Assembly (NCBI GenBank): GCA_045540175.1
Contig: JAZQGU010000033.1
Span: 18,539 to 82,538 of the forward strand
Source of the DNA: Eubacteriales bacterium
GTDB taxonomy: Bacteria; Bacillota; Clostridia; Oscillospirales; CAG-272
Direction: 5' to 3'
Length of the DNA stretch: 64,000 nucleotides
Part shown: positions 5,076-63,625 of the stretch, piece by piece
Layout: each line of letters opens with the position of its first letter
Numbering within the stretch: the stretch's first letter is position 1
Notes under the pieces: generated by a model
Databases searched by the model: none
Told to the model about the DNA's origin: nothing
What the model saw: only the letters and a program-made list of their open reading frames with translations
Program-made: the position numbers and the translations under genes

Positions 5076-5094
5076 AAATTCCTCCTGAAGGTTA

Positions 5095-5375
5095 TTTTTT
5101 CGCATTTCTTTGTTCGTACAAAGAAACGCTCGCAAAGAAATACGCCAAGGAGACAACCGGCAAAATTGCGCGAGCGAATTTTGCACGTTTTCTCCTTTGG
5201 AAACCTCTTTCGATTTGCGCGAAAAACTTAAAAGTTTTGCGTAAAACCGACGAGCGAATGCGAGGCGTGAAGTTTCTTTTGAAGATTCCAGAAGAAACTT
5301 TTCTTTGCGCTCAAAGAAAAGTTTCTTTGGTGCCGTTCTTTGGTCACCTTTCTTGGGCAAGCAAGAAAGGTGAGA
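5095..5375. repeat. AT-rich nested-hairpin mosaic element, copy A
   Basis: Shares modules with 38641-38778 and 56350-56670. The modules are CGCATTTCTTTG..CAAAGAAA, CCAAGGAGACAACCG-[inner palindrome]-CGTTTTCTCCTTTGG, and TCACCTTTCTTGGGCAAGCAAGAAAGGTGA. Confidence 0.85.
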
Positions 5376-8209: not shown

Positions 8210-8216
8210 TTAAACA

Positions 8217-8257
8217 CCCGGCCGATCTGACATTATCCGATCGGTCGGGAATATTTT
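8217..8257 (+). terminator. Weak terminator-like hairpin
   Basis: CCCGGCCGATC...GATCGGTCGGG stem (one G-T pair) followed by AATATTTTT. Confidence 0.4.
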
Positions 8258-8434
8258 TGCCGTCGTCGGCTTCGGTTTCCGATATCGTTGCCGCATAATT
8301 GAATCCGCTGTTTCAAATTGCAAAATAATTTGATTTGCAATGTTTTTTCGGGTTTTTTAGCCCTTGCATTTATTATCGAATTGCGATATCATATAGAAAA
8401 GCCTTATAATAAGGACAAGAAAGGCGGAAAAGCA

Positions 8435-9904: not shown

Positions 9905-9919
9905 AATTTGGTGAATGAT

Positions 9920-11479
9920 ATGAAAAAACTTTTGTGTCTGTTTTTAACCTTGCCTCTGCTTCTTTCCGTTATGATATCCTGCGGCGGCAAGAAGGATAAA
10001 ACCCCGGAAGAAGAAAAGCCCGCTTCGGTCGTTTCGTGGGTCGGTCACAGCTACGATAAGCTCAGAGCAGATCTCGGAAAGCCCGAGGGTGCCCAAAGCG
10101 AATACACCGTTTATATGGCAAAGGGCGAAACTGAGGGCTGTCACATGGGCGTTTACAGCGAAAAGGACCTTGAAAAGCTCCGATTCAAGGTTATTTCGGG
10201 CAAAAACGATCACATTACGCAGACTGCCTATAATATAAGACCCATACTGAAGATACGCAGAGGTCAAACGTACACCGACCCCGCCGTCCCCTTCGGCGGA
10301 GCGAGATTCTCCCTTGAGGCGAACACTACCTTTGCCATACTTCTCGAGTTCACCACTACTCCCGACACCCCGGCAGGAGATTACGAATACGAATTCGGAA
10401 TTACCGATTCCGAGGGAAATATTATCGTAAAAAACAAGGTGACCGTTCACGTTTGGGATTTCGAGATGCCCGAAAAGAAGACCTTTCAGACCTCGATCGG
10501 TCTTTCAGCAAGTACCAGAAAGCCTTATATCGATCTCCTTCTCGAGCACAATCTCAGCTGCAGATGGATATTCGGAGAAATTCTTTCGGGCGCGGCAGAC
10601 GAGGCTATGTCTGATCCGCGTGTGACCTCCTTCTGTATTCAGGGATATACCAATACCGAGGAGAATATCGTTGCCGTATACGAATATCTCAAGAAAAACC
10701 CAGAGTGGATGAAAAAGGCGTTTTTCTATCCGCTTGACGAGCCCCGAACCGTCGCAATGGTAAAGGAGCTTGAGCAAAAATACAAGTATCTTTCCGAGCT
10801 TTGCCCCGGAATCAAGATAATTTCCCCCTACTACACGAACGTTCAGATGGACAGCGAGACCGACCAGATCGGATATATGGCGTCATTTATGACGACCCAT
10901 TGCCCCAAGCTTTCAAACTGGGATGACGCCCAGATCTATTCTGCCGATCAGGCAGCTAAGTACGATTCCTTTGCCGACAGAATGAAGGCGCTTAAGGAAA
11001 GAGGAGATACAATCTGGGCATACGTTTGCAACTATCCCGAGGCTCCCTATCTTAACGTCAAGATCGACGAGGCGGGACTCGGAAGCCGCGTCCTCTTCTG
11101 GCAGATGTATCAGAGGGATATTGACGGATTCCTCTATTGGAATTCCACCTACTACGACAAGCTTCCCGATAAGAACCCCTGGAAGAGCGTCAACACCAAC
11201 GGCGACGGAATCTACGGCGACGGTATCCTTTTCTATCCCGGAGACGTTATCGGTACTTCCACCCCCATAGTTTCGATCAGAATGAAGCTTATGAGAGACG
11301 GTGTCGACGATATTGAGCTTCTGTATATGGCAGAGGAGCTTTTGGGTAAGGATTGGGTAGATGAAAGAGCAAGCAGCGTTTCCAAATCTCTGACGACCGT
11401 TGACGTAACGAGCGATCAGTTCGCCGCTCTCCGCATCGAGATCGGAAATGCGATCGAAGCCAAGCTGAAAAATAATTGA
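9920..11479 (+). CDS. DUF4091 / GH123-like lipoprotein, paralog 3
   Basis: 519 aa from ATG 9920. Signal MKKLLCLFLTLPLLLSVMISC. Same conserved blocks as paralogs 1 and 2. Confidence 0.75.
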   Translation: MKKLLCLFLTLPLLLSVMISCGGKKDKTPEEEKPASVVSWVGHSYDKLRADLGKPEGAQSEYTVYMAKGETEGCHMGVYSEKDLEKLRFKVISGKNDHITQTAYNIRPILKIRRGQTYTDPAVPFGGARFSLEANTTFAILLEFTTTPDTPAGDYEYEFGITDSEGNIIVKNKVTVHVWDFEMPEKKTFQTSIGLSASTRKPYIDLLLEHNLSCRWIFGEILSGAADEAMSDPRVTSFCIQGYTNTEENIVAVYEYLKKNPEWMKKAFFYPLDEPRTVAMVKELEQKYKYLSELCPGIKIISPYYTNVQMDSETDQIGYMASFMTTHCPKLSNWDDAQIYSADQAAKYDSFADRMKALKERGDTIWAYVCNYPEAPYLNVKIDEAGLGSRVLFWQMYQRDIDGFLYWNSTYYDKLPDKNPWKSVNTNGDGIYGDGILFYPGDVIGTSTPIVSIRMKLMRDGVDDIELLYMAEELLGKDWVDERASSVSKSLTTVDVTSDQFAALRIEIGNAIEAKLKNN

Positions 11480-11493
11480 TTCAAATGTGGTGA

Positions 11494-11827
11494 AAACGAT
11501 GTTGCATCACATCCGAACGGGCGAACACAGTTCGCCCCTACGGAAACTTTTGGAAGTCCCTCGGTAGGGGCGAACTGCGTTCGCCCGCGTAAATACGATG
11601 TTACATCCCCTTGGGACACCTCATCCACCGCAGCCGCAGCGTCTGCGGTCCCCCTGTCTCGCTGCGGCTCGGTCACGCTCGGGGTCTGACGTGCCCCCGG
11701 CACGTCATTCAACACCCTCGCGCCGCTTCGCTACCCAAGGGGAAGGCTAACGACGCGGCGAATCTTCGACACGTTGTTTGTAGGGACAGGCGTCCCCGAC
11801 TGTCCGCACCAAAACGATGTTACATCC
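11494..11827. repeat. GC-rich GTAG-palindrome mosaic repeat (REP/BIME-like), locus 1
   Basis: Contains GGGCGAACacagTTCGCCCCTAC, GTAGGGGCGAACtgcgTTCGCCC, ACGATGTTACATC, CACCTCATCCAC and GTAGGGACAGGCGTCCCCGACTGTCC. 11625-11736 is a 110/112 inverted copy of 30915-31026. Confidence 0.9.
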
Positions 11828-11877
11828 ATTGACACACAAAACATAATCTCGTAACTTATCTCAAGGAGAATCCCAAA

Positions 11878-13365: not shown

Positions 13366-13395
13366 AACGACGCGGCGACGCTTCGCCCGACAATT

Positions 13396-13430
13396 ATTCA
13401 TTATTCATCATTCATCATTCATTATTCACC
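13396..13430. repeat. Heptamer tandem repeat (ATTCATY)x5
   Basis: attcatt attcatc attcatc attcatt attcacc, directly abutting the terminator. Confidence 0.8.
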
Positions 13431-15703: not shown

Positions 15704-15775
15704 GCGCAGACCCCCGTCTGCGGTGGATGAGGTGTTCGGGAAGGAGGTAACATCGTTTTTTACGCGGGCGGAGAC
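15704..15775. repeat. GC-rich mosaic repeat fragment, locus 2
   Basis: CGCAGACccccGTCTGCG-GTGGATGAGGTG ... AACATCGTTTT ... TACGCGGGCG. Confidence 0.7.
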
Positions 15776-18807: not shown

Positions 18808-18995
18808 GGGCAAAGTCTTGCCTTCCCCTCAGGGGAAGGTGCCGAGTGAAACGAGGCGGATGAGGTGTATTGAACACAAGGAATCTGATTATAATAAGTC
18901 AGTTACTCCGCTTTTGATTTCTCCTCATCCGACTGCTCCTTCGTCGCAGCCACCTTCCCCGCTGGGGAAGGCAAGGAAGGAAACCCGTTTACGGG
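18808..18995. repeat. GC-rich mosaic repeat, locus 3 (inverted pair of CCTTCCCC-loop-GGGGAAGG / GGATGAGG modules)
   Basis: CCTTCCCCtcagGGGAAGGTG...GGCGGATGAGGTG, and the inverted CTCCTCATCCG...CACCTTCCCCgctgGGGAAGGCAAGG. Confidence 0.8.
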
Positions 18996-22232: not shown

Positions 22233-22534
22233 AGTAGGTTGAGCTTATGAATAAGCTCAACCTACTTTGAAATCAATTTGCTCCGCAAATTGGTGAAATA
22301 CGACTTGCGTCGTATGAAATAGGCTTTGCCTATGAAATATTTTCTTCGAAAATGTTAAGGATTAAAAATGATCCGTTGCATTTTGCAACGGATCTTTTTT
22401 TACCATAACATGCCCGAAGGGCATATATCATATTGCGATAGCAATATTTCATATTTCCGCAAGGAAATATTTCACATTACCGTCAGGTAATATATCACTG
22501 TGGTTTCGATAATCCCTTATCGCAACCACTTTTT
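22233..22534. repeat. Array of 11 consecutive distinct hairpins joined by TGAAAT / ATTTCA heptamers
   Basis: Stems were verified base by base. H1 22233-22266, H2 22274-22292, H3 22298-22315, H4 22319-22333, H5 22339-22353, H6 22364-22399, H7 22410-22424, H8 22430-22447, H9 22451-22470, H10 22476-22491, H11 22500-22529. Confidence 0.9.
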
Positions 22535-23713: not shown

Positions 23714-23790
23714 GAAAAATGATCCGTTGCATTTTGCAACGGATCATTTTTCATTGCGGTTGCGATAATCCCTTATCGCAACCGCTTTTT
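23714..23790 (+). terminator. Tandem terminator hairpins (copies of H6 and H11 of the 22.3-kb array)
   Basis: GAAAAATGATCCGTTGCAtttTGCAACGGATCATTTTTC, then GCGGTTGCGATAAtcccTTATCGCAACCGC-TTTTT. Confidence 0.85.
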
Positions 23791-23814: not shown

Positions 23815-23930
23815 GGGGATGTTGCAAAGGAAAGTAACATCGTTTCAAAACGGACAGTCGGGGACGCCTGTCCCTACAAACAACGTACCGAAGAATCGTG
23901 ACGCCGTTAGCCTGCCCTTCACCTCGCCGC
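23815..23930. repeat. GC-rich mosaic repeat, locus 4
   Basis: GATGTTGCAAAGG..AACATCGTTT, GGACAGTCGGGGACGCCTGTCCCTAC, AAACAACGTACCGAAGAATCG..GTTAGCC. Overlaps the 3' end of dinB. Confidence 0.85.
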
Positions 23931-25163
23931 CATCATACTGTTTATCTTCCCGAAGCCGAAGCCCTCGCCGACGTCGGAAAGGGACGATGCGTAGAGAAGT
24001 CCGTACCTTATTTTATCCCTGCCGAAACGAATATTTATCTTATCCATAACGGAATCGAGCGTCTCGCGCCTTACGGTGTCGAGGGGATCGGTAAAAAGGT
24101 CGATCTGACAGGGCGATGAAGACGGGATCAGCTCGCTTACGCCGACGGTAACAGACCGAAGCGGTGCGGAGAGGTGGTGCTTTTCGCACATAAGGTCAAA
24201 CGCCCGCTTTGAGATCACGGAACAGCTGTCGGTCGGCATTGAAAGACGGCACTGATACTGACGGGTCTGAAGATTGCAGTCACGGAGCGAAATGCTGACG
24301 GCGGAAGCCTTCTTTTTCAGCGAATGAAGCCGATGCCCAAGCTCCTCGCAGAGAGCGAGCATAACGGTCTTTATCTCCTCGCGGGTGCAAAGATCACGGG
24401 CAGTCGTCGTCCCGTGGCTCATGCTCTTTATAGGCGGTGAATTTTCCTCCGAAACGACAGGTGAACGATCCCTTCCGTTCGCAACTTCAATAAGCGCAAG
24501 CCCGTTTTTTCCGAGCGCACCCTTTATCATAGGCGGATAGGCGTTTGCGATCTGCCCGATCGTGTGGATGCCGAACCGCGCAAGCGTTGCGCTCGTGGCG
24601 GGACCGACGCCCATAAGATTGGAGGCGGGCAGATGCCAGATCTTTTCTCTGAACGAATCGTATGGGATCACGGTCACGGCGTCGGGCTTTTTCATATCGG
24701 AGCCGAGCTTGGCGAACATTTTGTTAAAGGAAACACCGACAGATATCGTAAGCCCAAGCTCCTTTTTTATTCGCTCGCGCACCGTGTTCGCAATCGTCTC
24801 ACCGTCACCGAAAAGAGCATAGCTTCCCGTTACGTCAAGCCAGCATTCGTCGGCACCGAACGGTTCAACGAGATCGGTATAGGAAAGATATATCTCCTTC
24901 GCAAGACGCGAAAAATACATGTATTCGTCGTAATGAGGCTCGATCGTAATGAGATCGGGGCACTTCTGCTTTGCGCGGAGAACGGGTTCACCCGTTACGA
25001 TGCCGTATTTTTTGGCAACGTAATTTTTGGCAAGCACTATCCCGTGCCGCTCCTCAACGCTTCCGCAGACGGCGACGGGGAGTGAAAAAAGCCGAGGATC
25101 CTTACGGCACTCGACGGACGCGAAGAAATTGTTCATGTCACAATGCAAAACCGTTCGTAACAC
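23919..25163 (-). CDS. dinB: DNA polymerase IV (Y-family)
   Basis: 414 aa from GTG 25163, 8 nt after GGAGG; the ORF-track start 25172 overlaps the RBS. LHCDMNNFFASVE, SVEE and the little-finger region are present. Confidence 0.9.
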   Translation of the reverse strand: MLRTVLHCDMNNFFASVECRKDPRLFSLPVAVCGSVEERHGIVLAKNYVAKKYGIVTGEPVLRAKQKCPDLITIEPHYDEYMYFSRLAKEIYLSYTDLVEPFGADECWLDVTGSYALFGDGETIANTVRERIKKELGLTISVGVSFNKMFAKLGSDMKKPDAVTVIPYDSFREKIWHLPASNLMGVGPATSATLARFGIHTIGQIANAYPPMIKGALGKNGLALIEVANGRDRSPVVSEENSPPIKSMSHGTTTARDLCTREEIKTVMLALCEELGHRLHSLKKKASAVSISLRDCNLQTRQYQCRLSMPTDSCSVISKRAFDLMCEKHHLSAPLRSVTVGVSELIPSSSPCQIDLFTDPLDTVRRETLDSVMDKINIRFGRDKIRYGLLYASSLSDVGEGFGFGKINSMMAAR

Positions 25164-25191
25164 TTGTATCACCTCCGAACATATTGTATCA

Positions 25192-30879: not shown

Positions 30880-31300
30880 GCGATAACGTACGGAAGTATC
30901 GGGACGTCGTTAGCCTTCCCCTGAGGGTAGCGAAGCGGCGCGAGGGTGTTGAATGACGTGCCGGGGGCACGTCAGACCCCGAGCGTGCCCGAGCCGCAGC
31001 GAGACAGGGGGACCGCAGACGCTGCGTCTGCGGTGGATGAGGTGTTCCAAAGGAATGTAACATCGTATTTACGCGGGCGAGCACTGCTCGCCCCTACAAA
31101 CAACGTGCCGAAGATTCGCCGCGTCGTCAGCCTTCCCCTTGGGGAAGGGGGACCGCGTTAGCGGTGGATGAGGTGTAGGTTGCGAAGCAACCGTGTGTTA
31201 AACCGATGTAACACCGTTATTATGCGGGCGAGCACTGCTCGCCCCTACGAGAGAGTTTAAAAGCTAATTGTAATTTGGTTGTGATGCAACATCATTTTAA
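30880..31300. repeat. GC-rich mosaic repeat, locus 5 (two or more tandem units)
   Basis: GTGGATGAGGTG occurs twice about 135 nt apart, and GGGCGAGCactgCTCGCCCCTAC occurs twice. Also CCTTCCCCttgGGGAAGG, ATGTAACATCGT, and a 112-nt inverted copy of 11625-11736. Confidence 0.9.
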
Positions 31301-38559: not shown

Positions 38560-38636
38560 TGTGTAAAGGGAGGCGGCGGGAGCAAGCCCCCACCCTACGG
38601 TGCGCCGAGGACGTCGCACCCTACAAACGATGTTTC
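38560..38636. repeat. GC-rich mosaic repeat, locus 6 (two CTAC-tailed palindromes)
   Basis: CGGCGGGAGCAAGCCCCCACCCTAC, then GGTGCGCCGAGGACGTCGCACCCTAC, then AAACGATGT. Confidence 0.85.
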
Positions 38637-38640
38637 TTAT

Positions 38641-38778
38641 TTTTCTTTAAAAGAAAGGGGATTCCAAAGGGGAAAACGTGTGCAGAATTTTGCATAGGCA
38701 AAATTCAAACCCGTTGTCACCTTTGGCGGTTTTCTTTGCGAGCGTTTCTTTGTGCGAACAAAGAAATGCGGAAAAATC
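38641..38778. repeat. AT-rich nested-hairpin mosaic element, copy B (partial, rearranged)
   Basis: AAAGGGGATTCCAAAGGGGAAAACGTGTGCAGAATTTTGCAtagGCAAAATTCAAACCCGTTGTCACC, plus an inverted CGCATTTCTTTG..CAAAGAAACGCTCGCAAAGAAA module. Abuts the glgA stop. Confidence 0.85.
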
Positions 38779-40213
38779 AAATCTTATTCCTATACACCTT
38801 AAGGTACTTCTTCACCGATACGTTCCAAGAAAAATCAGTCTTCATATTCTTGCGGACAAGGCGGTTGAAGCCCTTTTTGTCGCCTCTGTAGAAGTCAACG
38901 CATCTTTCGACTGCGCGGAGCATTTCGTGCGCGTTATAATCGACGAAGGTGAATCCGCGTCCGCTCGCATCTGTCGGATCGTAAGCAGGAACGGTGTCAC
39001 GGAGACCTCCCGTTTCTCTTACGATCGGTATAGTACCGTATCTCATTGCGACCATCTGCGAAAGTCCGCAAGGCTCGCTCTGCGAGGGCATAAGGAATAT
39101 ATCGGCACCCGCATAGATGGCGTTTGCAAGCTTCGGATCGAAGCGTATCTCTGCAGCCATTCTGCCCGGGTACTTCTCTGCCGTCATTTTCATTATATTC
39201 TCGTAAGCGTATTCGCCGGTACCGAGAATTACGACCTGTACTCCGAGCGCCATTATCTCGTTTATCACGCAAGCGACGAGGTCCATTCCCTTATGGCTGA
39301 CAAGACGGGTTATCATAGCGACTATCGGCGTATCCTTTTCGGGACGCAAGCCGAGAGTCTCCTGAAGGAAAAGCTTATCCTTCTGCTTATCCTTAACGGT
39401 TTCAACCGTCGGACCGTAATTTGCATAAAGCGCCTTATCGGTCTGCGGATTGAACACTTCCATATCAATACCATTTACAATACCGAAAAGCTTATGAGAA
39501 TTTTCACGGAGTATCGGAGACAGACCGTAAGAATAATATTCCGTCAGTATTTCTCCCGCATAGGTCTCGGAGACCGTCGTTACCGCGTCGGAGAATACTA
39601 TCGCGCCCTTCATAAGGTTTATGCAGTCGCCGTATGTAACAGCTGACGCCGTTTCGGGATCGACTCCCATAACATCGTAAGCGAAGCTCGGAGGCATTTT
39701 TCCCTGATACTCTATATTATGTATCGTAAATACCGTTCTGACCTTACTGAATTGCGGGTAGAACTTGCGGAGAAATACGGGCGTAAGTGCCGTCTGCCAG
39801 TCGTTGCAGTGAAGCACGTCGGGGGTGAAGCCGACAGCTATCATTGCCTCGATGACTGCACGTGAAAAATAAGCAAATCGTTCTCCGTCATCACCGTGAC
39901 CGTACGCAGCCGCGCCGCCTCGGCAGAAATAATATTCGTTATCAATGAATATATACTCGGGGTTTTTGCCCTCTCCCTCACGGAAAATGCCCGTGTACTG
40001 GTTTCTCCAGCTTAGCTGTGTGTTGACCGAGCCGTGGAAAACAAGCTCGTTCATCACCTTTTCATTTTCTTTAATTTTGCCGTAAAGCGGAATAACTACC
40101 TTTACCTCGTGTCCGAGTGCGGCAAGCGCTTTCGGAAGAGCCTGAAGAACGTCGCCAAGACCTCCGGTCTTTATATAAGGTGCCGCCTCGGAGGCGGTAA
40201 GAAGTATTTTCAT
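38777..40213 (-). CDS. glgA: Glycogen synthase (GT5)
   Basis: 478 aa. MKILLTASEAAPYIKTGGLGDV is the KTGGL motif. Confidence 0.92.
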   Translation of the reverse strand: MKILLTASEAAPYIKTGGLGDVLQALPKALAALGHEVKVVIPLYGKIKENEKVMNELVFHGSVNTQLSWRNQYTGIFREGEGKNPEYIFIDNEYYFCRGGAAAYGHGDDGERFAYFSRAVIEAMIAVGFTPDVLHCNDWQTALTPVFLRKFYPQFSKVRTVFTIHNIEYQGKMPPSFAYDVMGVDPETASAVTYGDCINLMKGAIVFSDAVTTVSETYAGEILTEYYSYGLSPILRENSHKLFGIVNGIDMEVFNPQTDKALYANYGPTVETVKDKQKDKLFLQETLGLRPEKDTPIVAMITRLVSHKGMDLVACVINEIMALGVQVVILGTGEYAYENIMKMTAEKYPGRMAAEIRFDPKLANAIYAGADIFLMPSQSEPCGLSQMVAMRYGTIPIVRETGGLRDTVPAYDPTDASGRGFTFVDYNAHEMLRAVERCVDFYRGDKKGFNRLVRKNMKTDFSWNVSVKKYLKVYRNKI

Positions 40214-42526: not shown

Positions 42527-42609
42527 GAAATAAACCTTCTTTCTTTTCCTCGTTATACGAAGATTAGTTTTTTATTTTACCCGTGCTCGTGACGGGGGTA
42601 GGTTTTTGT

Positions 42610-42704
42610 GTAGGGCGGGGGCTTGCTCCCGCCGCCGCAGGTCGTCAGACCTGCGGAAATGAGTTACATCGATTCGCAACGGCGGGAGCAAGCCCCCGCC
42701 CTAC
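42610..42704. repeat. Compact palindromic element (25-bp GTAG-headed terminal inverted repeats) inside the glycogen operon
   Basis: GTAGGGCGGGGGCTTGCTCCCGCCG (42610-42634) and its exact inverse (42680-42704) flank CCGCAGGTCgtcaGACCTGCGG and GAGTTACATCG. Confidence 0.9.
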
Positions 42705-42730
42705 GGTGTGGTGATAAAATTTATTTTATA

Positions 42731-56342: not shown

Positions 56343-56349
56343 GTATTTA

Positions 56350-56670
56350 TTTTTCCGCATTTCTTTGCCCACGCAAAGAAACTCTCGCAAAGAAACGTGC
56401 CAAGGAGACAACCGATAAAAATGCGTACGCATTTTTATACGTTTTCTCCTTTGGAAACCTCTTTCGATAAATGATAAGTTGGCATGTTTATCAATGGAGA
56501 TATAATCCTTGGGGCGTTTGAAACTTTTTTGCAACATAGTAAATTCCCCTTTATGAAAGGGGATTCCAAAGGGGAAAACGTGTGCAGAATTTTGCACGGC
56601 AAAATTCAAACCCGTTGTCACCTTGGTGCCGTTCTTTGGTCACCTTTCTTGGGCAAGCAAGAAAGGTGAG
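56350..56670. repeat. AT-rich nested-hairpin mosaic element, copy C (most complete)
   Basis: Holds all modules seen in copies A and B, including two nested hairpins in opposite orientation (56400-56454 and 56558-56616) and TCACCTTTCTTGGGCAAGCAAGAAAGGTGA. Confidence 0.85.
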
Positions 56671-57425: not shown

Positions 57426-58055
57426 ATGAATGCTGAATTTAAGATAAATAGAAAAGTAATTGAGACTGATCGACTCATTTTGCGTGCCTTTCAGCAGTCC
57501 GACCTCGACGACTTTTTCGAATACGCGTCGGTCGAGGGCGTCGGAGAGATGGCGGGTTGGCGTCATCACGAAAGCAAGGATAAGAGCCAAGAGATCCTTA
57601 ACCGCTTTATTGAGGAAAACAAAACCTTTGCCATTTGCTTAAAGGGAAACGGCAAGGTCATCGGCTCGCTCGGCATTGAAAAATACGGAATGGAAGAAGC
57701 GCTGACCGAGTTTGACGGTTATCGCGGACGGGAGATCGGTTACGTGCTTGCCAAGGATCACTGGGGTAAAGGCATAATGACTGAAGCCGTCAGCGCGGTC
57801 ATTGACTATCTCTTCAACGAACTCGACCTCGATTTTCTTACCTGCGGATATTACGATTTCAACAATCAGTCAAAGCGAGTTCAGGAAAAATGCGGCTTCA
57901 AGCCGTACAGAAAGCTCGTTATGGAAACTCGTCTCGGTACACAAGAGCCGGGCGTACTGAATTTGCTTGTGAATCCAAGAAAGAGAATCACTTTCAAATT
58001 CTCGCACCCCGAGACTTTGATATATGAAGATATAACGGATTTGCGGGAAGGTTAA
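57426..58055 (+). CDS. GNAT family N-acetyltransferase (RimJ/RimL-like)
   Basis: 209 aa. TDRLILRAF..., and the acetyl-CoA block GYVLAKDHWGKGIMTEA. Confidence 0.85.
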   Translation: MNAEFKINRKVIETDRLILRAFQQSDLDDFFEYASVEGVGEMAGWRHHESKDKSQEILNRFIEENKTFAICLKGNGKVIGSLGIEKYGMEEALTEFDGYRGREIGYVLAKDHWGKGIMTEAVSAVIDYLFNELDLDFLTCGYYDFNNQSKRVQEKCGFKPYRKLVMETRLGTQEPGVLNLLVNPRKRITFKFSHPETLIYEDITDLREG

Positions 58056-58078
58056 ACAGCGTTCAATCTATTTCCATA

Positions 58079-58120
58079 GGGAGGGGGTTCCCCTCCCGCA
58101 CCAAAACGATGTTACATTCC
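58079..58120. repeat. GC-rich mosaic repeat fragment, locus 7
   Basis: GGGAGGGGGttcCCCTCCC, then GCACCAAAACGATGTTACATTCC. Confidence 0.7.
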
Positions 58121-58138
58121 TTATTCAACCAACAAACG

Positions 58139-58166
58139 AAAAAACCGCCGATAATCGGCGGTTTTT
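58139..58166. terminator. Bidirectional terminator (GNAT / rbfA)
   Basis: AAAAAA-CCGCCGAT-a-ATCGGCGG-TTTTT. Confidence 0.85.
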
Positions 58167-58167
58167 G

Positions 58168-58575
58168 TTATTCTTCTGTATTTTCTTCTGAGTTTTCCTC
58201 TTCAAGTGCCGCTTTGCGGTCGGCTTCGCGGAGCTCCTCCTCGACCTGCTTCATGAGCTCGCTGATATGCGCGCCGTGCTTCATCGATTCATCGGAAATG
58301 AAGCGAAGCTCGGGAGTTATGCGGAGATTCAGCATCTTCGCTATCTGGGTTCTGATATAACCGGTTGCATTTTCAAGCCCCTTCAGCGCGTCTCCCTTAC
58401 GGCGCTCGCCCATTACGGAGAAATAGACCTTTGCATTTTTGAGGTCAGGCGTGCAATCAACAGCCGTAATGCTCACAAAAGCGCCCGAAACGCGGGGATC
58501 CTTTACCGTTCTTATTATTTCACAAAGCGCCTTCATAAGCTCTTCGTTTACTCTTCCAACTCTGTAATTAGCCAT
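58168..58575 (-). CDS. rbfA: Ribosome-binding factor A
   Basis: 135 aa. RVGRVNEELMKALCEII...VSITAVDCTPDLKNAKVYFS. Acidic C-terminal extension. Confidence 0.9.
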   Translation of the reverse strand: MANYRVGRVNEELMKALCEIIRTVKDPRVSGAFVSITAVDCTPDLKNAKVYFSVMGERRKGDALKGLENATGYIRTQIAKMLNLRITPELRFISDESMKHGAHISELMKQVEEELREADRKAALEEENSEENTEE

Positions 58576-58641
58576 TTTTCCACCTTAACAGTCGATTTTT
58601 GATAATTATAACACATAATAACCGAAAAATAAAGGGGTAAA

Positions 58642-59421
58642 TCAAATTTTCGTGCGTTCATAACGCATAACTCCTCCGAACTGCGAGACGTCAATATAAA
58701 AACAGTCGAAAATAAAGCGGAAAACACCGTTTTCGGCACTTTCCGATATAACTTTCCCGCCTCCGCAATGCAGATCGGCAAATTTTTCGGCGTCCTTTTT
58801 GGCTTCGTCTGCCGTAACTGCTTCATTTCCGCTTCGCCGGCAGAGATACCGCACAAAAATTCCGCCCTCAAACTCGGCATACGAGCTTGCGGTACGGTAA
58901 CCGATCACGCTCCCTCTCGTATATGAGCGGAGCTCCGACACTCCGAGGATCTTTTTCGCCTCGGAATAATACGGATTTTCCACAGGCTGTGATAAAGTCG
59001 GGATCTCGCCCTCGTAAAGCGGAAATGAGGTAATATCTCCGCCCTTTATCGCGCTTCGGTTTTCGATCAGCGCCTTCATAAGCTCCCCGGCGTAAAGAAG
59101 CGATCGGCGTTTAGCGTCGCTGTTTTTCTCCGACGACGAAACGTCGGAGCAAAACGATATCACCGCTTCCCGTTCCTCGTCGCCGAGCGGAAGCTCGTTC
59201 AAGCGCGACGACAAAAAAGGCGCGAGATGCGGATCCTCCGTCTCTATATATTCCCCCAAAAGCTGTATCGAGCTTTCAATGGCGCGATTTAATATTCTCG
59301 CTCGGTATTTTTCATATTTTTCCTCCGAGATCATGCACTTAAAGGCAAAAAATACCGAAGTCAGAATCAGAATTGCGATCACAAGAAGATATCCCAAGTC
59401 TCTTTTTCCGAAAAAATTCAT
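58642..59421 (-). CDS. Hypothetical membrane-anchored protein
   Basis: 259 aa from ATG 59421 (AGAGGG 8 nt upstream; alternative starts at 59442 and 59508). One N-terminal TM. No motif I can name. Confidence 0.5.
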   Translation of the reverse strand: MNFFGKRDLGYLLVIAILILTSVFFAFKCMISEEKYEKYRARILNRAIESSIQLLGEYIETEDPHLAPFLSSRLNELPLGDEEREAVISFCSDVSSSEKNSDAKRRSLLYAGELMKALIENRSAIKGGDITSFPLYEGEIPTLSQPVENPYYSEAKKILGVSELRSYTRGSVIGYRTASSYAEFEGGIFVRYLCRRSGNEAVTADEAKKDAEKFADLHCGGGKVISESAENGVFRFIFDCFYIDVSQFGGVMRYERTKI

Positions 59422-59535
59422 AATTATGCCCTCTATCTCCATTCTTTTGCTCTTTACAAGTATAAAAAAGTTTGCTATAATATTATGGGAATATGTTTCC
59501 CAAAACAAAGATTTTTAACCGCAAGGAGATCAATT

Positions 59536-59862
59536 ATGAAGCTCATTTTAGCGATTGTAAATAACGACGACGCTCATTCCGTAAGCACCTCTCTCAGCCA
59601 CGAGGGCTTTTCCGTTACTAAAATTTCTTCGACGGGCGGATTTCTTATGAGCGGAAACTCGACGTTCCTCATCGGCGTCGAGGACAAGGACACCGAGCGC
59701 GCAACCAAGATCATTGCCGAAAACTGCGAAAAGCGTGAGCAGTTCGTTCCGAGCAGCATCGCAAAGGGAGGAATCTCCTCAATGCCCCGCGAGACCACGA
59801 AGGTAACCGTCGGCGGTGCGACCGTCTTCGTTCTCAACGTCGAGGAATGCAAGCATCTGTAA
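59536..59862 (+). CDS. darA: Cyclic-di-AMP receptor, PII-like (DarA/YaaQ)
   Basis: 108 aa with AAGGAG RBS. MKLILAIVNNDD...VTKISSTGGFLMSGNSTFLIGVED...VGGATVFVL closely parallels B. subtilis YaaQ. Confidence 0.85.
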   Translation: MKLILAIVNNDDAHSVSTSLSHEGFSVTKISSTGGFLMSGNSTFLIGVEDKDTERATKIIAENCEKREQFVPSSIAKGGISSMPRETTKVTVGGATVFVLNVEECKHL

Positions 59863-60872
59863 TGACGCCCGATATTCTTTTCGGTAACGAAAGCCTCAAA
59901 GCCGCTCTTCGCGGTTTCGCTTCAAAAAATGCTTTCCCGAACGCTTTTATGATAAGCGGCCCCGAGGGAAGCGGAAAATCCACCGCCGCGCTCCTTTTTG
60001 CGATGGCGATTGCCTGCAAGGGCGGAAGCCGTCCCTGCGGAAGCTGTCCTTCCTGCCGTAAGATCTCGGAGGGGATCTCTCCCGACGTCATAACGGTCGG
60101 CGTTACAAAGGACAGAAAGACCATCGGAGTCGAAAGCGTAAGAGAAATAACAAGCGGTGCCTACATTCTGCCAAACGATCTTGACGTAAAGATATATATC
60201 ATCAAGGACGCCGAAAAGCTGACCGTGCAGGCGCAGAATGCGCTTCTAAAGATCTTTGAGGAGGGACCCGAAAGAGTGTATTTCATACTCCTCACCTCTG
60301 CGCCCTCACAGCTTCTTCCGACCGTCCGTTCCCGTGCGCCCGAGATAAAGACCGAGGTGTTTTCGGACGGTATGCTTACCGATCTTTTGCTCGATAACAG
60401 CAAAAAGGCGGCGGAGCTTTATAAAAAAGATGAAACAGAGTTTAAAAGGATCGTAAGTGCTTCGGGCGGAAGCTACGGTAAAGCAATTTCGATTCTCGAA
60501 GGAAAAAACAAAAAGGCAATTCAGACGGCAAAAAAAGCCGAAAGTATTGTTTCGCTTCTTTCCGAAAAGGACGGCGCGCATCTTATGCTCGCCCTGCTCG
60601 ACGAGGCGTCAGACAGAGAAAATTACGCGTCAGTCCTCTCTCTTATGCAGAATGCCCTGCGTGACCTCGCTATGGTCAAAAAGGGCGGCAGTTCTCTGCT
60701 GTTTTATCCCGATCGCGGGCTTGCGGAGCAGGTCTCGGAGAATTTTTCTCTTACCTCGCTCGTTCAGCTTTGCTCGGTTCTCGATACTCTTTATTATGAG
60801 GTCACTCAGACGAACATAAACCTCCGTAACGCCGCCGTTGTCGCCGCAGGGAGACTGACGGATTTATTGTAA
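59862..60872 (+). CDS. holB: DNA polymerase III delta' subunit
   Basis: 336 aa from the ATG overlapping the darA stop (TAATG). GPEGSGKST P-loop. CGSCPSCRK Zn module. SRAP sensor motif (TVRSRAP). Confidence 0.85.
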   Translation: MTPDILFGNESLKAALRGFASKNAFPNAFMISGPEGSGKSTAALLFAMAIACKGGSRPCGSCPSCRKISEGISPDVITVGVTKDRKTIGVESVREITSGAYILPNDLDVKIYIIKDAEKLTVQAQNALLKIFEEGPERVYFILLTSAPSQLLPTVRSRAPEIKTEVFSDGMLTDLLLDNSKKAAELYKKDETEFKRIVSASGGSYGKAISILEGKNKKAIQTAKKAESIVSLLSEKDGAHLMLALLDEASDRENYASVLSLMQNALRDLAMVKKGGSSLLFYPDRGLAEQVSENFSLTSLVQLCSVLDTLYYEVTQTNINLRNAAVVAAGRLTDLL

Positions 60873-60924
60873 AGAGAGACGAAAGAAAACATCCGATCAC
60901 ATATCAAATATTCGCCACGCCATT

Positions 60925-61150
60925 GTAGGGTGCGACGTCCTCGGCGCACCGTAGGGGCGAACTGTGTTCGCCCGCACCAAAACGATGTTACATCGTATTC
61001 ATAACGCCATCTGCGACGGCTACACCTCATCCGCTTCACTTCGTTCAGCACCTTCCCCCGCTGGGGAAGGCAAGACGACGTCCCGATTTTTCGGCACGTT
61101 GTTCGTAGGGCGGGGGCTTGCTCCCGCCGTCACAATACGACGTTACATCT
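60925..61150. repeat. GC-rich mosaic repeat, locus 8 (cleanest full unit)
   Basis: GTAGGGTGCGACGTCCTCGGCGCACC; GTAGGGGCGAACtgtgTTCGCCC; ACGATGTTACATCGT; CACCTCATCC; CCTTCCCCcgctGGGGAAGG; CGGCACGTTGTTC; GTAGGGCGGGGGCttGCTCCCGCC. Confidence 0.9.
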
Positions 61151-61282
61151 TCCTTTCACCCGATCTACCGCAAAAACTCCGCCGATTCCCGACGGCGGTT
61201 TATGACACCAAGGGATTTTTGCGTGCCGAGGCTTTACCGGCGAAGCCTCGGAAATACTCAAGCCGGAGAAACGGATAAAAAA

Positions 61283-62449
61283 GTGCCAAACGAAAACAAC
61301 AAGAACAACCAAGGCGGTAAAAGATACCGCGGTTATTACAAAAAACATCATAAGGGAAAGAATAACCGTCCCGAGAAGAAGGAGCCCGAACAGCTCGAAA
61401 AGATCGAAGAGACAATAGCCGAAGAGATCGAGGAGACTGTTGAAGAAGTCTTCGAAGACGTCATTCCCGAGGATGATTTTATCGAGGAGTCTCACTCCGA
61501 GGAGGAGCCCGCTTCGAGCGAGATCAAAAAGGCTCAATATGACGTCGTCGGCGTCCGCTTCAGAGAAGGCGGAAAGATGTACTACTTTGAGCCGAACGGT
61601 ATCGCCTGCGGCGAGGGTGCGCACGTTATTGTCGAGACAGCGAGAGGTCTCGAATACGCGACCGTCGTAATGCCCGAAAGAACCGTCAGCGGAAGCGAGG
61701 TGGTTCTTCCGCTCCGCAAGCTTGTTCGTATAGCTACCGATAACGATGAGCGCCGCCACGAGGAAAACCTCGAAAAGGAGATCGAGGCTTATAATATGTG
61801 CCTCTCAAAGATCGAGGAGCACCGCCTCGATATGAAGCTCGTCGAGGTCGAATACGCCTTCGATAACTCAAAGCTTCTCTTCTACTTCACGTCGGAGGGA
61901 AGAGTCGATTTCCGCGATCTCGTAAAAGATCTGGCGTCTGTCTTCCGTACGAGGATAGAGCTCCGTCAGATCGGTATCCGCGACGAAGCAAAGCTTCTCG
62001 GCGGTCTCGGAATCTGCGGCAGGCCCTTCTGCTGTAACAGCTTCCTGCCCGATTTCGTCCAGGTTTCGATCAAGATGGCGAAGGAACAGAATCTTTCCCT
62101 CAATTCAGCTAAAATTTCGGGCGCCTGCGGACGACTTATGTGCTGTCTGCGCTACGAATACGATACGTACCTTGCCGAAAGCGCCATCACGCCAAAGGTC
62201 GACGCCATTGTCGAAACTCCCGACGGCGAGGGTGTTGTCGTTGAGTCGATGCCTCTTAAGGGAATGGTCAAGGTGGCTCTCGATAAGGACCCCGCTACCT
62301 TCCGCCTCTACCGCCGCGACGATCTGACCGTCAAGGGACATTCAAAAGGAAAGCATAAAACCGTCGGTAAAAACGTCCGTGATGACGCTCAAAAGCAGAA
62401 AAATACCGACGATAATAAGAAAAAGTCAGAAAAAACCGATAAAAAATAA
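61283..62449 (+). CDS. ricT: PSP1 domain protein (RicT/YaaT-like) with Lys/Glu-rich extensions
   Basis: 388 aa if the GTG at 61283 is the start (GGAGA 13 nt upstream). The ORF-track ATG 61118 lies inside the repeat. The PSP1 core is VVGVRFREGGKMYYFEP...VIVETARGLEYATV...CGRPFCCNSFL...CGRLMCCLRYE. Confidence 0.8.
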   Translation: MPNENNKNNQGGKRYRGYYKKHHKGKNNRPEKKEPEQLEKIEETIAEEIEETVEEVFEDVIPEDDFIEESHSEEEPASSEIKKAQYDVVGVRFREGGKMYYFEPNGIACGEGAHVIVETARGLEYATVVMPERTVSGSEVVLPLRKLVRIATDNDERRHEENLEKEIEAYNMCLSKIEEHRLDMKLVEVEYAFDNSKLLFYFTSEGRVDFRDLVKDLASVFRTRIELRQIGIRDEAKLLGGLGICGRPFCCNSFLPDFVQVSIKMAKEQNLSLNSAKISGACGRLMCCLRYEYDTYLAESAITPKVDAIVETPDGEGVVVESMPLKGMVKVALDKDPATFRLYRRDDLTVKGHSKGKHKTVGKNVRDDAQKQKNTDDNKKKSEKTDKK

Positions 62450-62469
62450 TCAGAAAATCAAATTTGAGG

Positions 62470-62498
62470 TTGATTTTATAGAATCATTGTGCTATAAT
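62470..62498 (+). promoter_or_regulatory. Extended -10 promoter for ferredoxin
   Basis: TTGATT-17 nt-(TGc)TATAAT. Confidence 0.6.
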
Positions 62499-62541
62499 GC
62501 ACTTAGAATTTGGAGTATTCCAAGGAAAGGATGGATCTACA

Positions 62542-62712
62542 ATGGCATACAAGATTAATGATGATTGCATCGCATGCGGCGCTTGTGCTGATGAGTGCCC
62601 TGTAAGCTGCATCTCCGAGGGAGAAGACAAGTACGTAATCAATGCAGATGAGTGCATCGAGTGCGGTGCTTGTGCAGGCGCTTGCCCTGTCGGCGCTCCT
62701 GAGCAGGAATAA
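62542..62712 (+). CDS. fdx: 2x[4Fe-4S] clostridial-type ferredoxin
   Basis: 56 aa. MAYKINDDCIACGACADECPV...CIECGACAGACPV gives two CxxCxxCxxxCP motifs. Confidence 0.92.
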   Translation: MAYKINDDCIACGACADECPVSCISEGEDKYVINADECIECGACAGACPVGAPEQE

Positions 62713-62727
62713 TTAAATTTACTTAAC

Positions 62728-62756
62728 AAAAAAGCTCCCGAACGGGAGCTTTTTTG
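62728..62756 (+). terminator. Intrinsic terminator after ferredoxin
   Basis: AAAAAAGCTCCC-gaac-GGGAGCTTTTTT. Confidence 0.9.
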
Positions 62757-62764
62757 TTTTGCCG

Positions 62765-63398
62765 GGGCGAATCTTCGAGACGTTGTTTGTAGGGTGCGAC
62801 GTCCTCGGCACACCGCAAAAAGATGATGTTAATTTACTTTCAAAGCGGGCGACCATTGCTCGCCCCTACAAGATAATTTTGAACGTTCTCGTAGGGGCGA
62901 GCATTGCTCGCCCGTATAAAAACGATGTTGCACCACAACCGAACGGGCGACCGATGGTCGCCCCTACAATTAACTTTTAAACTCTCTCGTAGGGGCGAAC
63001 TGTGTTCGCCCGCGTAAATATGATGTAACATTCCTTTGGTACACCTCATCCGTCGCGGCTCCGCCCCGACACCTTACCCTGAGGGGAAGGCAAGATAACG
63101 TGGCGATGCTTCGGCACGTTATTTGTAGGGACAGGCGTCCTCGACTGTCCGTTTTGAAACGATGTTACTTTGCCTTTAGAACACGGTTGCTTCGCAACCT
63201 ACACCTCATCCACCACCTTCGGTGGTCCCCCTTCCCCCGCTGGGGAAGGCAAGACAACGTGGCGATGCTTCGCGGACGAGTATCTCGCCTGCGGCGAGTA
63301 TTTTTCCGCCGTGCAGACGTCTCGCAAGCGGACGTCGTGCTTTCGGCGAAAATGCGAACTCGTTGCGCTTTCGCGCCGAGCCGATTCGTAGAATCGGC
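62765..63398. repeat. GC-rich mosaic repeat, locus 9 (largest array, six GTAG-headed palindromes in alternating orientation plus further hairpins)
   Basis: GTAG-headed palindromes start at 62789, 62891, 62989 and 63124. CTAC-tailed inverse copies end at 62869 and 62967. Two CCTT(A/C)CCC-loop-GGGGAAGGCAAGA modules and two CACCTCATCC modules are also present. Confidence 0.9.
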
Positions 63399-63438
63399 AA
63401 AATGAAAAGAGGGATGCGTTGCATCCCTCTTTTCATTT
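63399..63438 (-). terminator. Terminator of the tRNA operon
   Basis: AAAATGAAAAGAGGGATGC-gtt-GCATCCCTCTTTTCATTTT, a 19-bp stem directly abutting the tRNA-Glu 3' end. Confidence 0.75.
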
Positions 63439-63513
63439 TGGTGACCCGTACGAGAATCGAACTCGTGTTACCGCCGTGAAAGGGCGGTGTCTTAGCCGCT
63501 TGACCAACGGGCC
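63439..63513 (-). tRNA. tRNA-Glu: tRNA-Glu (anticodon UUC), CCA encoded
   Basis: The reverse complement GGCCCGTTGGTCAAGCGGCTAAGACACCGCCCTTTCACGGCGGTAACACGAGTTCGATTCTCGTACGGGTCACCA folds as a cloverleaf. Anticodon loop CTTTCAC. Confidence 0.9.
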
Positions 63514-63590
63514 TGGTAGCGGAGATTGGACTTGAACCCATGACCTACCGGGTATGAACCGGTTGCTCTAGCCAACTGAGCTACTCCGCC
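63514..63590 (-). tRNA. tRNA-Met: tRNA-Met (anticodon CAU), CCA encoded
   Basis: The reverse complement is GGCGGAGTAGCTCAGTTGGCTAGAGCAACCGGTTCATACCCGGTAGGTCATGGGTTCAAGTCCAATCTCCGCTACCA. Anticodon loop TTCATAC. One mismatch in the T stem. Met versus Ile2 or initiator identity is not resolved. Confidence 0.85.
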
Positions 63591-63625
63591 ACATTTTGTT
63601 TCGCTTCCATCGAAAGCGCTTAAAG

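Follow-up and report, generated by a model that had tools for sequence, protein, structure and literature searches.

A modular mosaic of GTAG-headed hairpins in an uncultured gut Clostridia bacterium, probably REPs of the RAYT subclass 2.4 type

Introduction

What kind of element is the mosaic of GC-rich hairpins that occupies positions 60925-61150 of a 64-kb stretch of DNA (contig JAZQGU010000033.1), and what has dispersed it? We refer to the whole stretch, 64,000 nucleotides (nt) in length, as the window. An earlier note, made from the sequence alone, had described a modular repeat at 11 intergenic sites, built from palindromes with a GTAG head, and had compared these palindromes with repetitive extragenic palindromes (REPs), with their mosaics (bacterial interspersed mosaic elements, BIMEs) and with REP doublets (REPINs). 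The biology of REPs and of REP-associated tyrosine transposases (RAYTs) rests almost entirely on Enterobacteria, Pseudomonas, and Stenotrophomonas. Our analysis favours, with a probability of about 0.65, an explanation in which the GTAG hairpins belong to the REPs of RAYT/TnpA-REP subclass 2.4 (Bertels group 4), were dispersed by such an enzyme, and have accreted with a second family of hairpins.

A modular repeat at eleven intergenic sites

The 11 intergenic sites, which together cover about 2.1 kb rather than the roughly 2.5 kb first given, share one modular grammar that reads E, A (the GTAG-headed hairpin), B, in some units C0, C, D, and then E and A again. A regex map of the window recovered the module order A-B-C-D-E-A at all large sites, in either orientation, and seven units were colinear when aligned. 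When the whole window was searched for repeats, these families came up at the sites listed and in either orientation. Exact module patterns had 3 to 9 matches in the window versus none in shuffled sequence, and with one grammar at all large sites the claim of an 11-site modular repeat held. Specifically, the REP core GTAGGGGCGANCNNNGNTCGCCCG, which is the class-1 hairpin, had 9 exact matches versus 0 in 100 shuffles; the hairpin followed by module B (GTAGGG-N17-30-ACGATGTTAC) and the D-E-A junction had 6 and 3 matches, respectively, and both were absent from the shuffles. A scan for GT[AG]G next to a GC-rich hairpin gave 18 matches in the window, 17 of which were GTAGGG-headed elements at the reported sites; the same scan of Markov-resampled sequence gave a mean of 1.6 and a maximum of 6 matches, and control tetranucleotide heads gave 0 to 2. 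As single-stranded DNA, the focal 232 nt and an array of 509 nt folded better than shuffles (z = -5.5 and z = -8.85, respectively). All of the repeat sites lay between long open reading frames (ORFs); six ORFs that overlap the repeats had no Pfam match, and a coding function was rejected on this ground.

The focal stretch 60925-61150 reads, in order, GTAGGGTGCGACGTCCTCGGCGCACC, GTAGGGGCGAACTGTGTTCGCCC, ACGATGTTACATCGT, ACACCTCATCC, a variable hairpin, CCTTCCCCCGCTGGGGAAGGCAAGAC, a hairpin ending in CGGCACGTTGTTC, and GTAGGGCGGGGGCTTGCTCCCGCC, in agreement with its first description. All of its modules are on the plus strand. The array opens with a class-3 REP (A3; 60925-60950; hairpin scan, regex map and covariation), composed of GTAG and GGTGCGACG-TCCT-CGGCGCACC, whose stem has a single purine-purine mismatch; a 100% complementary copy lies at 38593-38626. 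It is followed by a class-1 REP (A1; 60951-60973; core pattern and genome scan), composed of GTAG and GGGCGAAC-TGT-GTTCGCCC, whose core is common to many taxa and is embedded in RAYT genes. Module B (60979-60996; repeat finding, alignment and regex map) is the tail-side linker AAAACGATGTTACATCGT. Its conserved part is the palindromic core GATGTWACATC; the 15-bp palindrome ACGATGTTACATCGT singled out previously was indeed present in the focal copy, but proved to be copy-specific.

Further along, hairpin C0 (61006-61020; alignment and fold) reads GCCATC-TGC-GACGGC here and, with compensatory changes, GGTTGC-TTC-GCAACC elsewhere. The C-D double hairpin (61022-61076; regex map, viral and metagenome scans), made of ACACCTCATCC, a variable hairpin, CCTTCCCC-CGCT-GGGGAAGG, and CAAGAC, belongs to an independent family without a GTAG head. 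Module E (61074-61104; alignment, D-E-A pattern and fold), the head-side linker or hairpin GACGACGTCCCGATTTTTCGGCACGTTGTTC, always abuts the next GTAG, in this case that of a class-4 REP (A4; 61105-61128; hairpin scan and regex map) formed by GTAG and GGCGGGGG-CTTG-CTCCCGCC with a G.T at stem position 7; further class-4 copies are at 42610, 42704, and 38575. A degenerate module B, ACGACGTTACATCTT (61137-61151; regex map), ends the array. In the alignment, the regex map, and the relatives, module E always adjoined the GTAG head and module B always came after the tail.

GTAG-headed hairpins and their pairing

Module A comprised at least five classes in the window: class 1 (GGGCGAxC-nnn-GxTCGCCC), with 9 copies; class 2 (GGACAGGCGTCCYCGACTGTCC), with 3; class 3 (GGTGCGACGTCCTCGGCGCACC), with 3 to 4; class 4 (GGCGGGGGCTTGCTCCCGCC), with 4; and class 5 (GGAGGGGGTTCCCCTCCC), with 1. 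Stems were 8-9 bp long and loops 3-4 nt, and the first three pairs were G-C. By definition (PMC6006769), a REP has a GT[AG]G that precedes a hairpin by 0-2 nt on the 5' side, at least 7 pairs in a GC-rich basal stem, and a short loop; 17 window elements had these sequence features versus 1.6 expected. The REPs reached a density of 17-21 copies per 64 kb, all intergenic, and were scattered over 51 kb in both orientations; relatives had copies at other loci. By sequence, structure, and arrangement, the GTAG-headed palindromes fit the REP/BIME/REPIN definition, as had been proposed.

The genome collection was scanned with the class-1 core, in which two stem positions were left free. Among the matches listed (120 loci), these free positions were Watson-Crick in 171 cases out of 174, with A-T (79), C-G (42), G-C (29), and T-A (21) pairs. 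Eight outer triplets were seen in classes 2 and 3 around a constant core G[AG]CGTCCYCG[AG]C, and were complementary in 22 copies out of 23; C0 covaried in the same manner (GGTTGC/GCAACC versus GCCGTC/GACGGC). The variation of the stems thus preserves base pairing, as predicted. The wording that the palindrome "always pairs" was too strong, since classes 2 to 4 have a conserved non-Watson-Crick position 7 in the stem (G.A, A.G, or G.T).

Head-to-head class-1 doublets, with a conserved spacer S of 21-22 nt, were found at 11519-11586, 62847-62913, and 62945-63011. At 62847-63011 and 11519-11586, tail-to-tail B linkers alternated with these doublets in a BIME-like manner, and an inverted REP pair occurred at 42610/42704. 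Neighbouring REPs in the genome loci were tail-to-tail (83), head-to-head (51), or direct (45), again among the matches listed. The inverted or alternating REPIN/BIME layout applies to some of the mosaic but not to all of it.

RAYT-like genes in related taxa

A phmmer search and a family hidden Markov model (HMM), run over the fetched loci, identified RAYT-like genes in L009, L017, L263, and L395. The phmmer query was an E. coli RayT sequence, the central part of which agrees with chain 4ER8_A. The gene of L009 (Oscillospiraceae) had five alternating REPs upstream, a REP at the 3' end, and another within it in frame, and the gene of L017 had two in-frame REPs. In L263, the exact class-1 REP of the window was present twice in the gene, where it is translated as the peptides VGANCVRP and GRTQFAPT; the L263 contig also held class 2/3 REPs and an inverted C-D pair. 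The search for Y1 genes flanked by these palindromes, recommended by the earlier note, thus succeeded in other Clostridia (L009 and L263).

A search with the L009 protein returned 275 homologues, mostly from Clostridia metagenome-assembled genomes (MAGs). These are named "transposase" in databases, with one JGI entry named "REP element-mobilizing transposase RayT". The motifs VGAxxxRP and GRxxxAPT, which the REP encodes when read forward and in reverse, were present in 83 and 100 out of 120 homologues, respectively, and the REP DNA itself was visible inside the genes of L009, L017, L139, and L263. Most of the homologues (P0121-P0240) carry two in-frame REPs at conserved positions and in opposite orientation; in the AT-rich L139 gene, the in-frame REPs stand out as GC-rich islands. 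Three proteins (P0143, P0132, and P0136), considered as the RAYT of this lineage according to their embedded-REP peptides, were rejected, as they belong to other, partly AT-rich organisms.

The best sequence match of the RAYT-like protein in the PDB was 4ER8, the E. coli TnpA-REP. The AlphaFold model (pLDDT 87, pTM 0.81) also had 4ER8_A as its best Foldseek match (TM 0.64, root-mean-square deviation 2.8 Å), followed by the TnpA proteins of IS608 and ISDra2. The invariant residues H83, H85, W124, Q125, D130, H131, R134, and Y145 correspond to HuH, WQ..DH..R, and the tyrosine. By motif and predicted fold, the RAYT-like proteins of related taxa are of the TnpA-REP kind. Subclass 2.4 (PMC6006769), which is the same as group 4 (PMC5581495), is spread over many phyla (PMC6006769, PMC5581495), so that REPs and RAYTs are not limited to Proteobacteria as had been assumed; its hallmarks are a stem based on GGG and in-frame REPs within the gene (PMC6006769). 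The REP core and the RAYT-like genes described here fit this subclass. The earlier statement that no equivalent had been characterised in Clostridia stood insofar as our literature searches found no description of REP/RAYT in Oscillospiraceae or Ruminococcus, but hundreds of RAYT-like genes are already present in databases.

Some RAYT-like genes (L128-L135, at 5001-5486 of L128; and L263, at 1343-1837) were located inside housekeeping operons, one between ruvA and ruvB, with its start 4 nt past ruvA, and another between pgk and tpiA. Such a position fits domesticated, vertically kept genes.

Spread of the core and of the composite unit

The class-1 REP core was detected in at least 120 GTDB genome blocks, mostly MAGs of gut or rumen Clostridia, and in 106 IMG/VR viral stretches, where our rough estimate from the collection size was less than one match by chance. 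The repeats are therefore not confined to the window, which the earlier note had named as a possible refutation. Among the matches listed, the Clostridia with the core included Oscillospiraceae, Ruminococcus, Faecousia, and Acutalibacteraceae, and the other taxa included Zoogloeaceae (8 copies, in inverted pairs), Coriobacteriales, Helicobacteraceae, Acidobacteria, and others. The flanks of this core were quite different in Faecousia.

Dense inverted-pair arrays of the identical 24-nt core were observed in L013 (Zoogloeaceae), L087 and L035 (Coriobacteriales), and L016 (Helicobacteraceae); the isolate names of several of these other-phylum MAGs suggest a single sampling project. The identity of the core in other phyla suggests that it spread horizontally or, possibly, that MAGs were contaminated during binning. 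REP/RAYT systems are usually regarded as vertically inherited. On a more speculative reading, the occurrence of an identical 24-nt core in several phyla and in over 100 viral contigs would suggest that such systems have spread by way of phages.

The full composite unit (modules B to E) is confined to the window and to its genus-level relatives, namely L088/L122 (GCA_045540115.1, ~79-85% nt identity), L125 (GCA_054297265.1, ~90%), and L123. The D-E-A junction pattern had 0 matches in JGI metagenomes, which indicates that the composite is rare or lineage-restricted, and no protein matched the six-frame translation of modules B-E at E <= 0.001. The A-B pattern had 52 matches in viral contigs, which is close to our rough chance estimate for 17 fixed bases, and these were disregarded. 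Short AT-rich repeats (ATTCATT / AATTCnnAAT) adjoined a REP or C-D in several unrelated genomes, as observed at 13396-13430 of the window and in L094, L112, and L205.

Turnover between strains and loci

In strain L121 (97% nt identity), 75 nt of unrelated sequence stood in place of the 296 nt that hold the focal mosaic in the window. The REP-less spacer was common to L121 and L125, and the REP-bearing spacer, together with its left flank, was common to the window and the more distant L123; this distribution indicates allele replacement and not simple insertion. The strain comparison proposed by the earlier note thus revealed the absence of the focal copy from L121, as a replacement of the whole spacer rather than a clean empty site. 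REP content differed at orthologous sites in L125, L122, and L123, with three such sites in L125, and the L125 site orthologous to 58077-58120 held a longer array (C-D-E-A-B) with a different hairpin. Among contigs L128-L133 (99.4-99.9% identical), no REP insertion polymorphism was found.

At 6398-8771 of L125, a restriction-modification pair (N6_N4_Mtase and Mrr_cat) was located where the window has its largest array (62767-63389), which makes the interval from the ferredoxin gene to the tRNA genes a variable hot spot. Contigs L126 and L127, which are 99.7-99.8% identical to the window, both ended at window position 62725, ~35 nt before the array, as is typical of assembly breaks at repeats.

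Proposed mechanism

In the explanation that we favour, the REPs would act as single-strand DNA hairpins, and an HUH-Y1 nuclease, the product of a single-copy gene at another place in the genome, would recognise their 5' GTAG foot and GGG-initiated stem. By nicking and rejoining DNA beside the hairpin, this nuclease would have dispersed, duplicated, and reshuffled the REPs in intergenic DNA. At least four or five REP classes, with lineage-specific flanks (E beside the head, B beside the tail), would thus have formed two kinds of arrays: BIME-like ones, with alternating REPs and the linkers S and B, and direct ones with a period of ~150 nt and C0-C-D between the REPs. Whole composite units may have been copied as blocks between distant loci. 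The mosaic would then represent an accretion of at least two hairpin families in permissive intergenic sites, often beyond terminator-like hairpins and T runs. We infer a RAYT in this genome, its moving of these copies, and its cleavage chemistry, the latter modelled on E. coli TnpA-REP (PDB 4ER8; PMC3479197, PMC8266576).

Several observations weigh against this mechanism. No RAYT gene was found within the 64-kb window by jackhmmer or by the family HMM, in line with the earlier note, so the cognate enzyme is a putative one. The RAYT-like proteins of the relatives scored 62-69 bits with NCBIfam REP_Tyr_transpos, below the cut-off of 80, and 21-26 bits with Pfam Y1_Tnp, for which the cut-off is 23, and the curated cut-offs were missed. 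REP orientation in the window showed no strand bias (9 plus, 8 minus). Many REPs followed one another in direct orientation at ~150 nt, separated by C0-C-D, unlike the classical REPIN/BIME layout, and no role in RAYT chemistry is known for modules C-D, B, E, and S. Finally, no clean pair of filled and empty sites with defined junctions was found; the difference between holB and PSP1 is an allele replacement.

Possible mobility of whole units

The direct arrays could also have arisen if the mobile unit were not the REP but the whole ~150-215 nt between consecutive same-strand GTAG hairpins, a mini IS200/IS605-type element whose left-end and right-end hairpins would lie on one strand, resembling palindrome-associated transposable elements (PATEs) or miniature inverted-repeat transposable elements (MITEs). 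A Y1 transposase would excise such a unit as a single-stranded circle and insert it beside an existing copy, giving direct tandem arrays. We consider this somewhat unlikely. The direct arrays do read A-B-C-D-E-A with one orientation per array, E is always at the GTAG head and B always past the tail, and the copy at 30880 ends exactly at the E/GTAG junction. Moreover, 11564-11736 and the inverted 30925-31097, two loci 19 kb apart, are 95% identical and both contain a unique insert of 107 nt; this common private insert indicates that a whole unit can be copied as a block. The predicted enzyme fold is also found in IS608 and ISDra2 TnpA. These features are opposed by the many partial arrangements (E-A-B, A-B, or C-D by itself), by the independence of C-D from REPs in most genomes, and by the restriction of the composite to a few related species; the viral A-B matches were at about chance level, and no empty-site comparison sets the ends of the unit or its target sequence. 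A MITE proper was rejected, as direct reading found neither terminal inverted repeats nor target-site duplications at unit ends or flanks.

The C-D double hairpin and a possible role in RNA

The C-D element consists of ACACCTCATCC, a short hypervariable hairpin, and CACCTTCCCC-loop-GGGGAAGGC. The pattern ACACCTCATCC-N15-45-GGGGAAGGC was found in 79 IMG/VR stretches and in at least 120 metagenome stretches. Among the matches listed, 202 copies in distinct contexts had 97 different 5' stems in the first hairpin, which was perfect in 158 of these copies; over all copies, 1034 out of 1108 pairs were Watson-Crick, and loops were mostly of 3 nt. A GTAGGG hairpin lay within 120 nt of 12 out of 104 viral and 20 out of 127 metagenome copies, also among the matches listed. 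Being rarely near GTAGGG hairpins and lacking a GTAG head, C-D represents a family independent of the REPs; the idea that the entire mosaic is built from GTAG-headed palindromes was therefore abandoned.

The viral contigs with C-D are real phages, as judged from portal, large terminase, and ParB-like genes, and one C-D copy was in frame inside a ParB-like gene. On the phage contig L201 (1483-1640), C-D formed a tandem repeat of 54 nt (18 codons) with at least 3 copies, apparently inside an ORF. A blastn search of the C-D consensus against GenBank phages returned only seven unannotated "Bacteriophage sp." records from human faeces, and the C-D sequence strings had no match in the literature searched. 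Other double hairpins of C-D architecture, such as ACCCCTCAGTC-hairpin-CAGCTCCCC-loop-GGGGAGCC, and a motif GGACGGATTGCCAC...CTCGCAATGAC, often just upstream of C-D in phage contigs, were observed among L169, L211, L084, and L029 and L209, L215, and L218; these look-alikes and this motif suggest a larger superfamily. More tentatively, the mosaic might be where two or more separate hairpin-repeat families of gut Clostridia and phages come together, with C-D possibly an undescribed class of element that has its own machinery or function, which we regard as conceivable but not probable.

In phages, all C-D copies were on one strand in 16 out of 17 multi-copy loci. Copies located within 45 nt upstream of a ribosome-binding site (RBS), a start codon, and an ORF were observed in the sense orientation in 29 out of 92 viral copies, versus 0 out of 92 in the antisense orientation; the RBS/start test was used in place of an ORF-strand comparison, which is unreliable in GC-rich viral contigs. 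The strand lock leaves room for an RNA or transcription-linked role of C-D, and a broader version of this idea is that the hairpins of the mosaic are mainly RNA-level cis elements of 3' UTRs, intercistronic regions, or 5' leaders (mRNA stabilisers, attenuators, or processing sites), which the host or phage would retain for this function and whose mobility is secondary. The folds are very stable and, in our reading, most oriented window sites point as the upstream gene does. E. coli REPs are known to stabilise upstream mRNA.

We nevertheless consider a mainly RNA-level role improbable. Bacterial C-D copies lacked the position bias seen in phages (4 versus 2 of 127). Loops were mostly of 3 nt, stems were near-perfect palindromes, and G.T pairs were not in excess over A.C pairs (9 versus 18 in 1108 pairs), with just 1 G.T in 174 REP free positions among the matches listed; together, these features favour pairing at the DNA level. 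Several sites lie beyond terminator-like hairpins and T runs according to direct reading, although the terminator scan listed only 58140-58166, and site 6 is antisense to both of its neighbours. The module hairpins lack a T tract and are not intrinsic terminators: the terminator scan of 57900-63600 returned none of them, and the sequence past their stems was not T-rich. A known structured RNA was likewise rejected, as no Rfam 15 match at gathering score fell on the repeats and only generic hairpin look-alikes, far below threshold, appeared at E <= 1.

Least probable is that the repeats are immobile, either as structural or host-protein binding sites, in the way that gyrase and IHF bind E. coli BIMEs, or as products of local tandem duplication or gene conversion without a dedicated enzyme: tandem or alternating arrays could grow by slippage or unequal recombination, the holB-PSP1 polymorphism resembles allele exchange rather than transposition, and no RAYT lies in the window, but the 24-nt core recurs at unrelated loci in at least 120 genome blocks of several phyla and 106 viral stretches and is embedded in and flanks RAYT-like genes, orthologous sites hold different hairpin classes, and copies lie scattered over 51 kb in both orientations. 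A CRISPR was rejected, as the "spacers" are conserved and form no regular array.

Comparison with known systems

With subclass 2.4 REP/RAYT systems, the repeats have in common the 5' GTAG foot directly beside a GC-rich hairpin that opens with three G-C pairs, the presence of several REP classes per genome, and an extragenic, dispersed distribution with inverted doublets and alternating arrays. In related taxa, REPs also flank an HUH-Y1 gene and occur in frame inside it, and 4ER8 is the best structural match of the predicted protein. Whereas subclass 2.4 has been described mainly in Cyanobacteria, Bacteroidetes, Chlorobia, and Caldilineae (PMC6006769, PMC5581495), the host here is an uncultured gut Clostridia (Eubacteriales) bacterium. 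Other differences are the direct REPs ~150 nt apart with long conserved multi-hairpin linkers, the position of the in-gene REPs at two conserved places in opposite orientation in most homologues, and the fact that the link between REP and RAYT is known here from related taxa and not from the window.

The BIMEs of E. coli, made of REPs Y, Z1, and Z2 and linkers, resemble the BIME-like arrays in their alternating REPs and two linkers, S between heads and B between tails in the present case. They differ in sequence, and the mosaic additionally has direct arrays and a foreign double hairpin within the repeat period. In the intergenic mosaic elements of Neisseria (NIMEs), dRS3 repeats of 20 bp delimit units of 50-150 bp. 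The likeness to NIMEs is architectural only, with intergenic arrays, short palindromic boundary repeats that delimit longer variable units, and strain differences; here, the boundary is a GTAG-headed REP instead of dRS3, and there is no link to phage integration sites, which are known for dRS3. Finally, the ends of IS200/IS605 elements and PATEs also present subterminal hairpins on one strand to a Y1 HUH enzyme, and the fold predicted here matches IS608 and ISDra2 TnpA. In contrast to them, the units carry no transposase or TnpB, no defined ends or target sites were found, and the associated genes appear to be single-copy and lie in housekeeping operons (ruvA-ruvB, pgk-tpiA).

The kind of element is thus already known, and some of the enzymes are already labelled by database annotation. 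The novelty lies in the host group, in a core common to several phyla and to phages, in direct arrays of composite units, and in RAYT genes that are embedded in operons. Uncultured Clostridia of the gut and rumen abound in systems of this kind and offer a second, distant setting in which RAYT domestication and REP function can be tested. A model of the repeats would improve the annotation of MAGs, since they apparently interrupt metagenome assemblies, give rise to spurious ORFs, and mark intergenic sites that are hypervariable. The independent phage C-D element constitutes a separate lead.

Other sites of the mosaic in the window

Among the plus-strand sites, site 1 (11486-11830; repeat finding, alignment and regex map) reads B'-A1(-)-S-A1(+)-B-C-D-E-A2-B, with the 107-nt insert in C, and contains the head-to-head doublet 11519-11586. 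Three tandem paralogous genes of ~525 amino acids (65-82% nt identity between stretches) lie directly upstream of it, at 6635-11479. The short site at 13366-13395 could be retained only as a weak remnant of module E, followed by short repeats of ATTCATT type; it was recognised by direct reading, with no match of any module regex. Site 9 (58077-58120; repeat finding and regex map) consists of (A)TAG, GGAGGGGG-TT-CCCCTCCC (class 5), and B. Site 11 (62762-63272; repeat finding, alignment and regex map) reads E-A3-B-[A1(-)-S-A1(+)-B]x2-C-D-E-A2-B-C0-C-D-E, with BIME-like alternating REPs at 62847-63011 followed by two direct composite units. The mosaic had been delimited at 62765-63398, which is correct as far as ~63272; positions 63272-63398 are a different sequence that is tandemly triplicated in L122.

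On the minus strand, site 3 (15704-15775; repeat finding and regex map) is a partial unit with C at 15725-15735 and B at 15745-15756. Site 5 (23815-23930; repeat finding, hairpin scan and regex map) reads E-A2-B and abuts the stop codon of the minus-strand gene 23919-25172. Site 6 (30880-31300; repeat finding, alignment and regex map) reads B'-S-A1-B-C0-C-D-E-A1-B-C(long)-D-E, and site 7 (38560-38640; repeat finding, hairpin scan and regex map) has tandem A4-like and A3 REPs followed by a degenerate B. Two sites have no single orientation: site 4 (18808-18995; repeat finding and regex map) is an inverted C-D pair without a GTAG hairpin, located between convergent genes and distal to terminator-like hairpins, and site 8 (42605-42705; repeat finding, hairpin scan and regex map) is a REPIN-like inverted pair of class-4 REPs (42610+, 42704-) around another hairpin and a B-like core.

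Other features of the window

Outside the mosaic, a sequence of 160 nt at 63267-63427, downstream of the tRNA-Glu and tRNA-Met genes, was present as three tandem copies in L122 (3795-4796). Two matches to Gut-1 RNA (RF01706) above the gathering score were observed at 22265-22343 (+) and 22420-22500 (-), inverted and 77 nt apart, and this pair is flanked by near-identical terminator-like palindromes at 22361-22400 and 23715-23754. A third, unrelated repeat of 55-58 nt, with the palindrome TTTCTTTGTGCGAACAAAGAAA, was found at 5094-5148, 38723-38780, and 56346-56403, with copies 84-93% alike, one of which lies ~270 nt upstream of a flavin mononucleotide (FMN) riboswitch.

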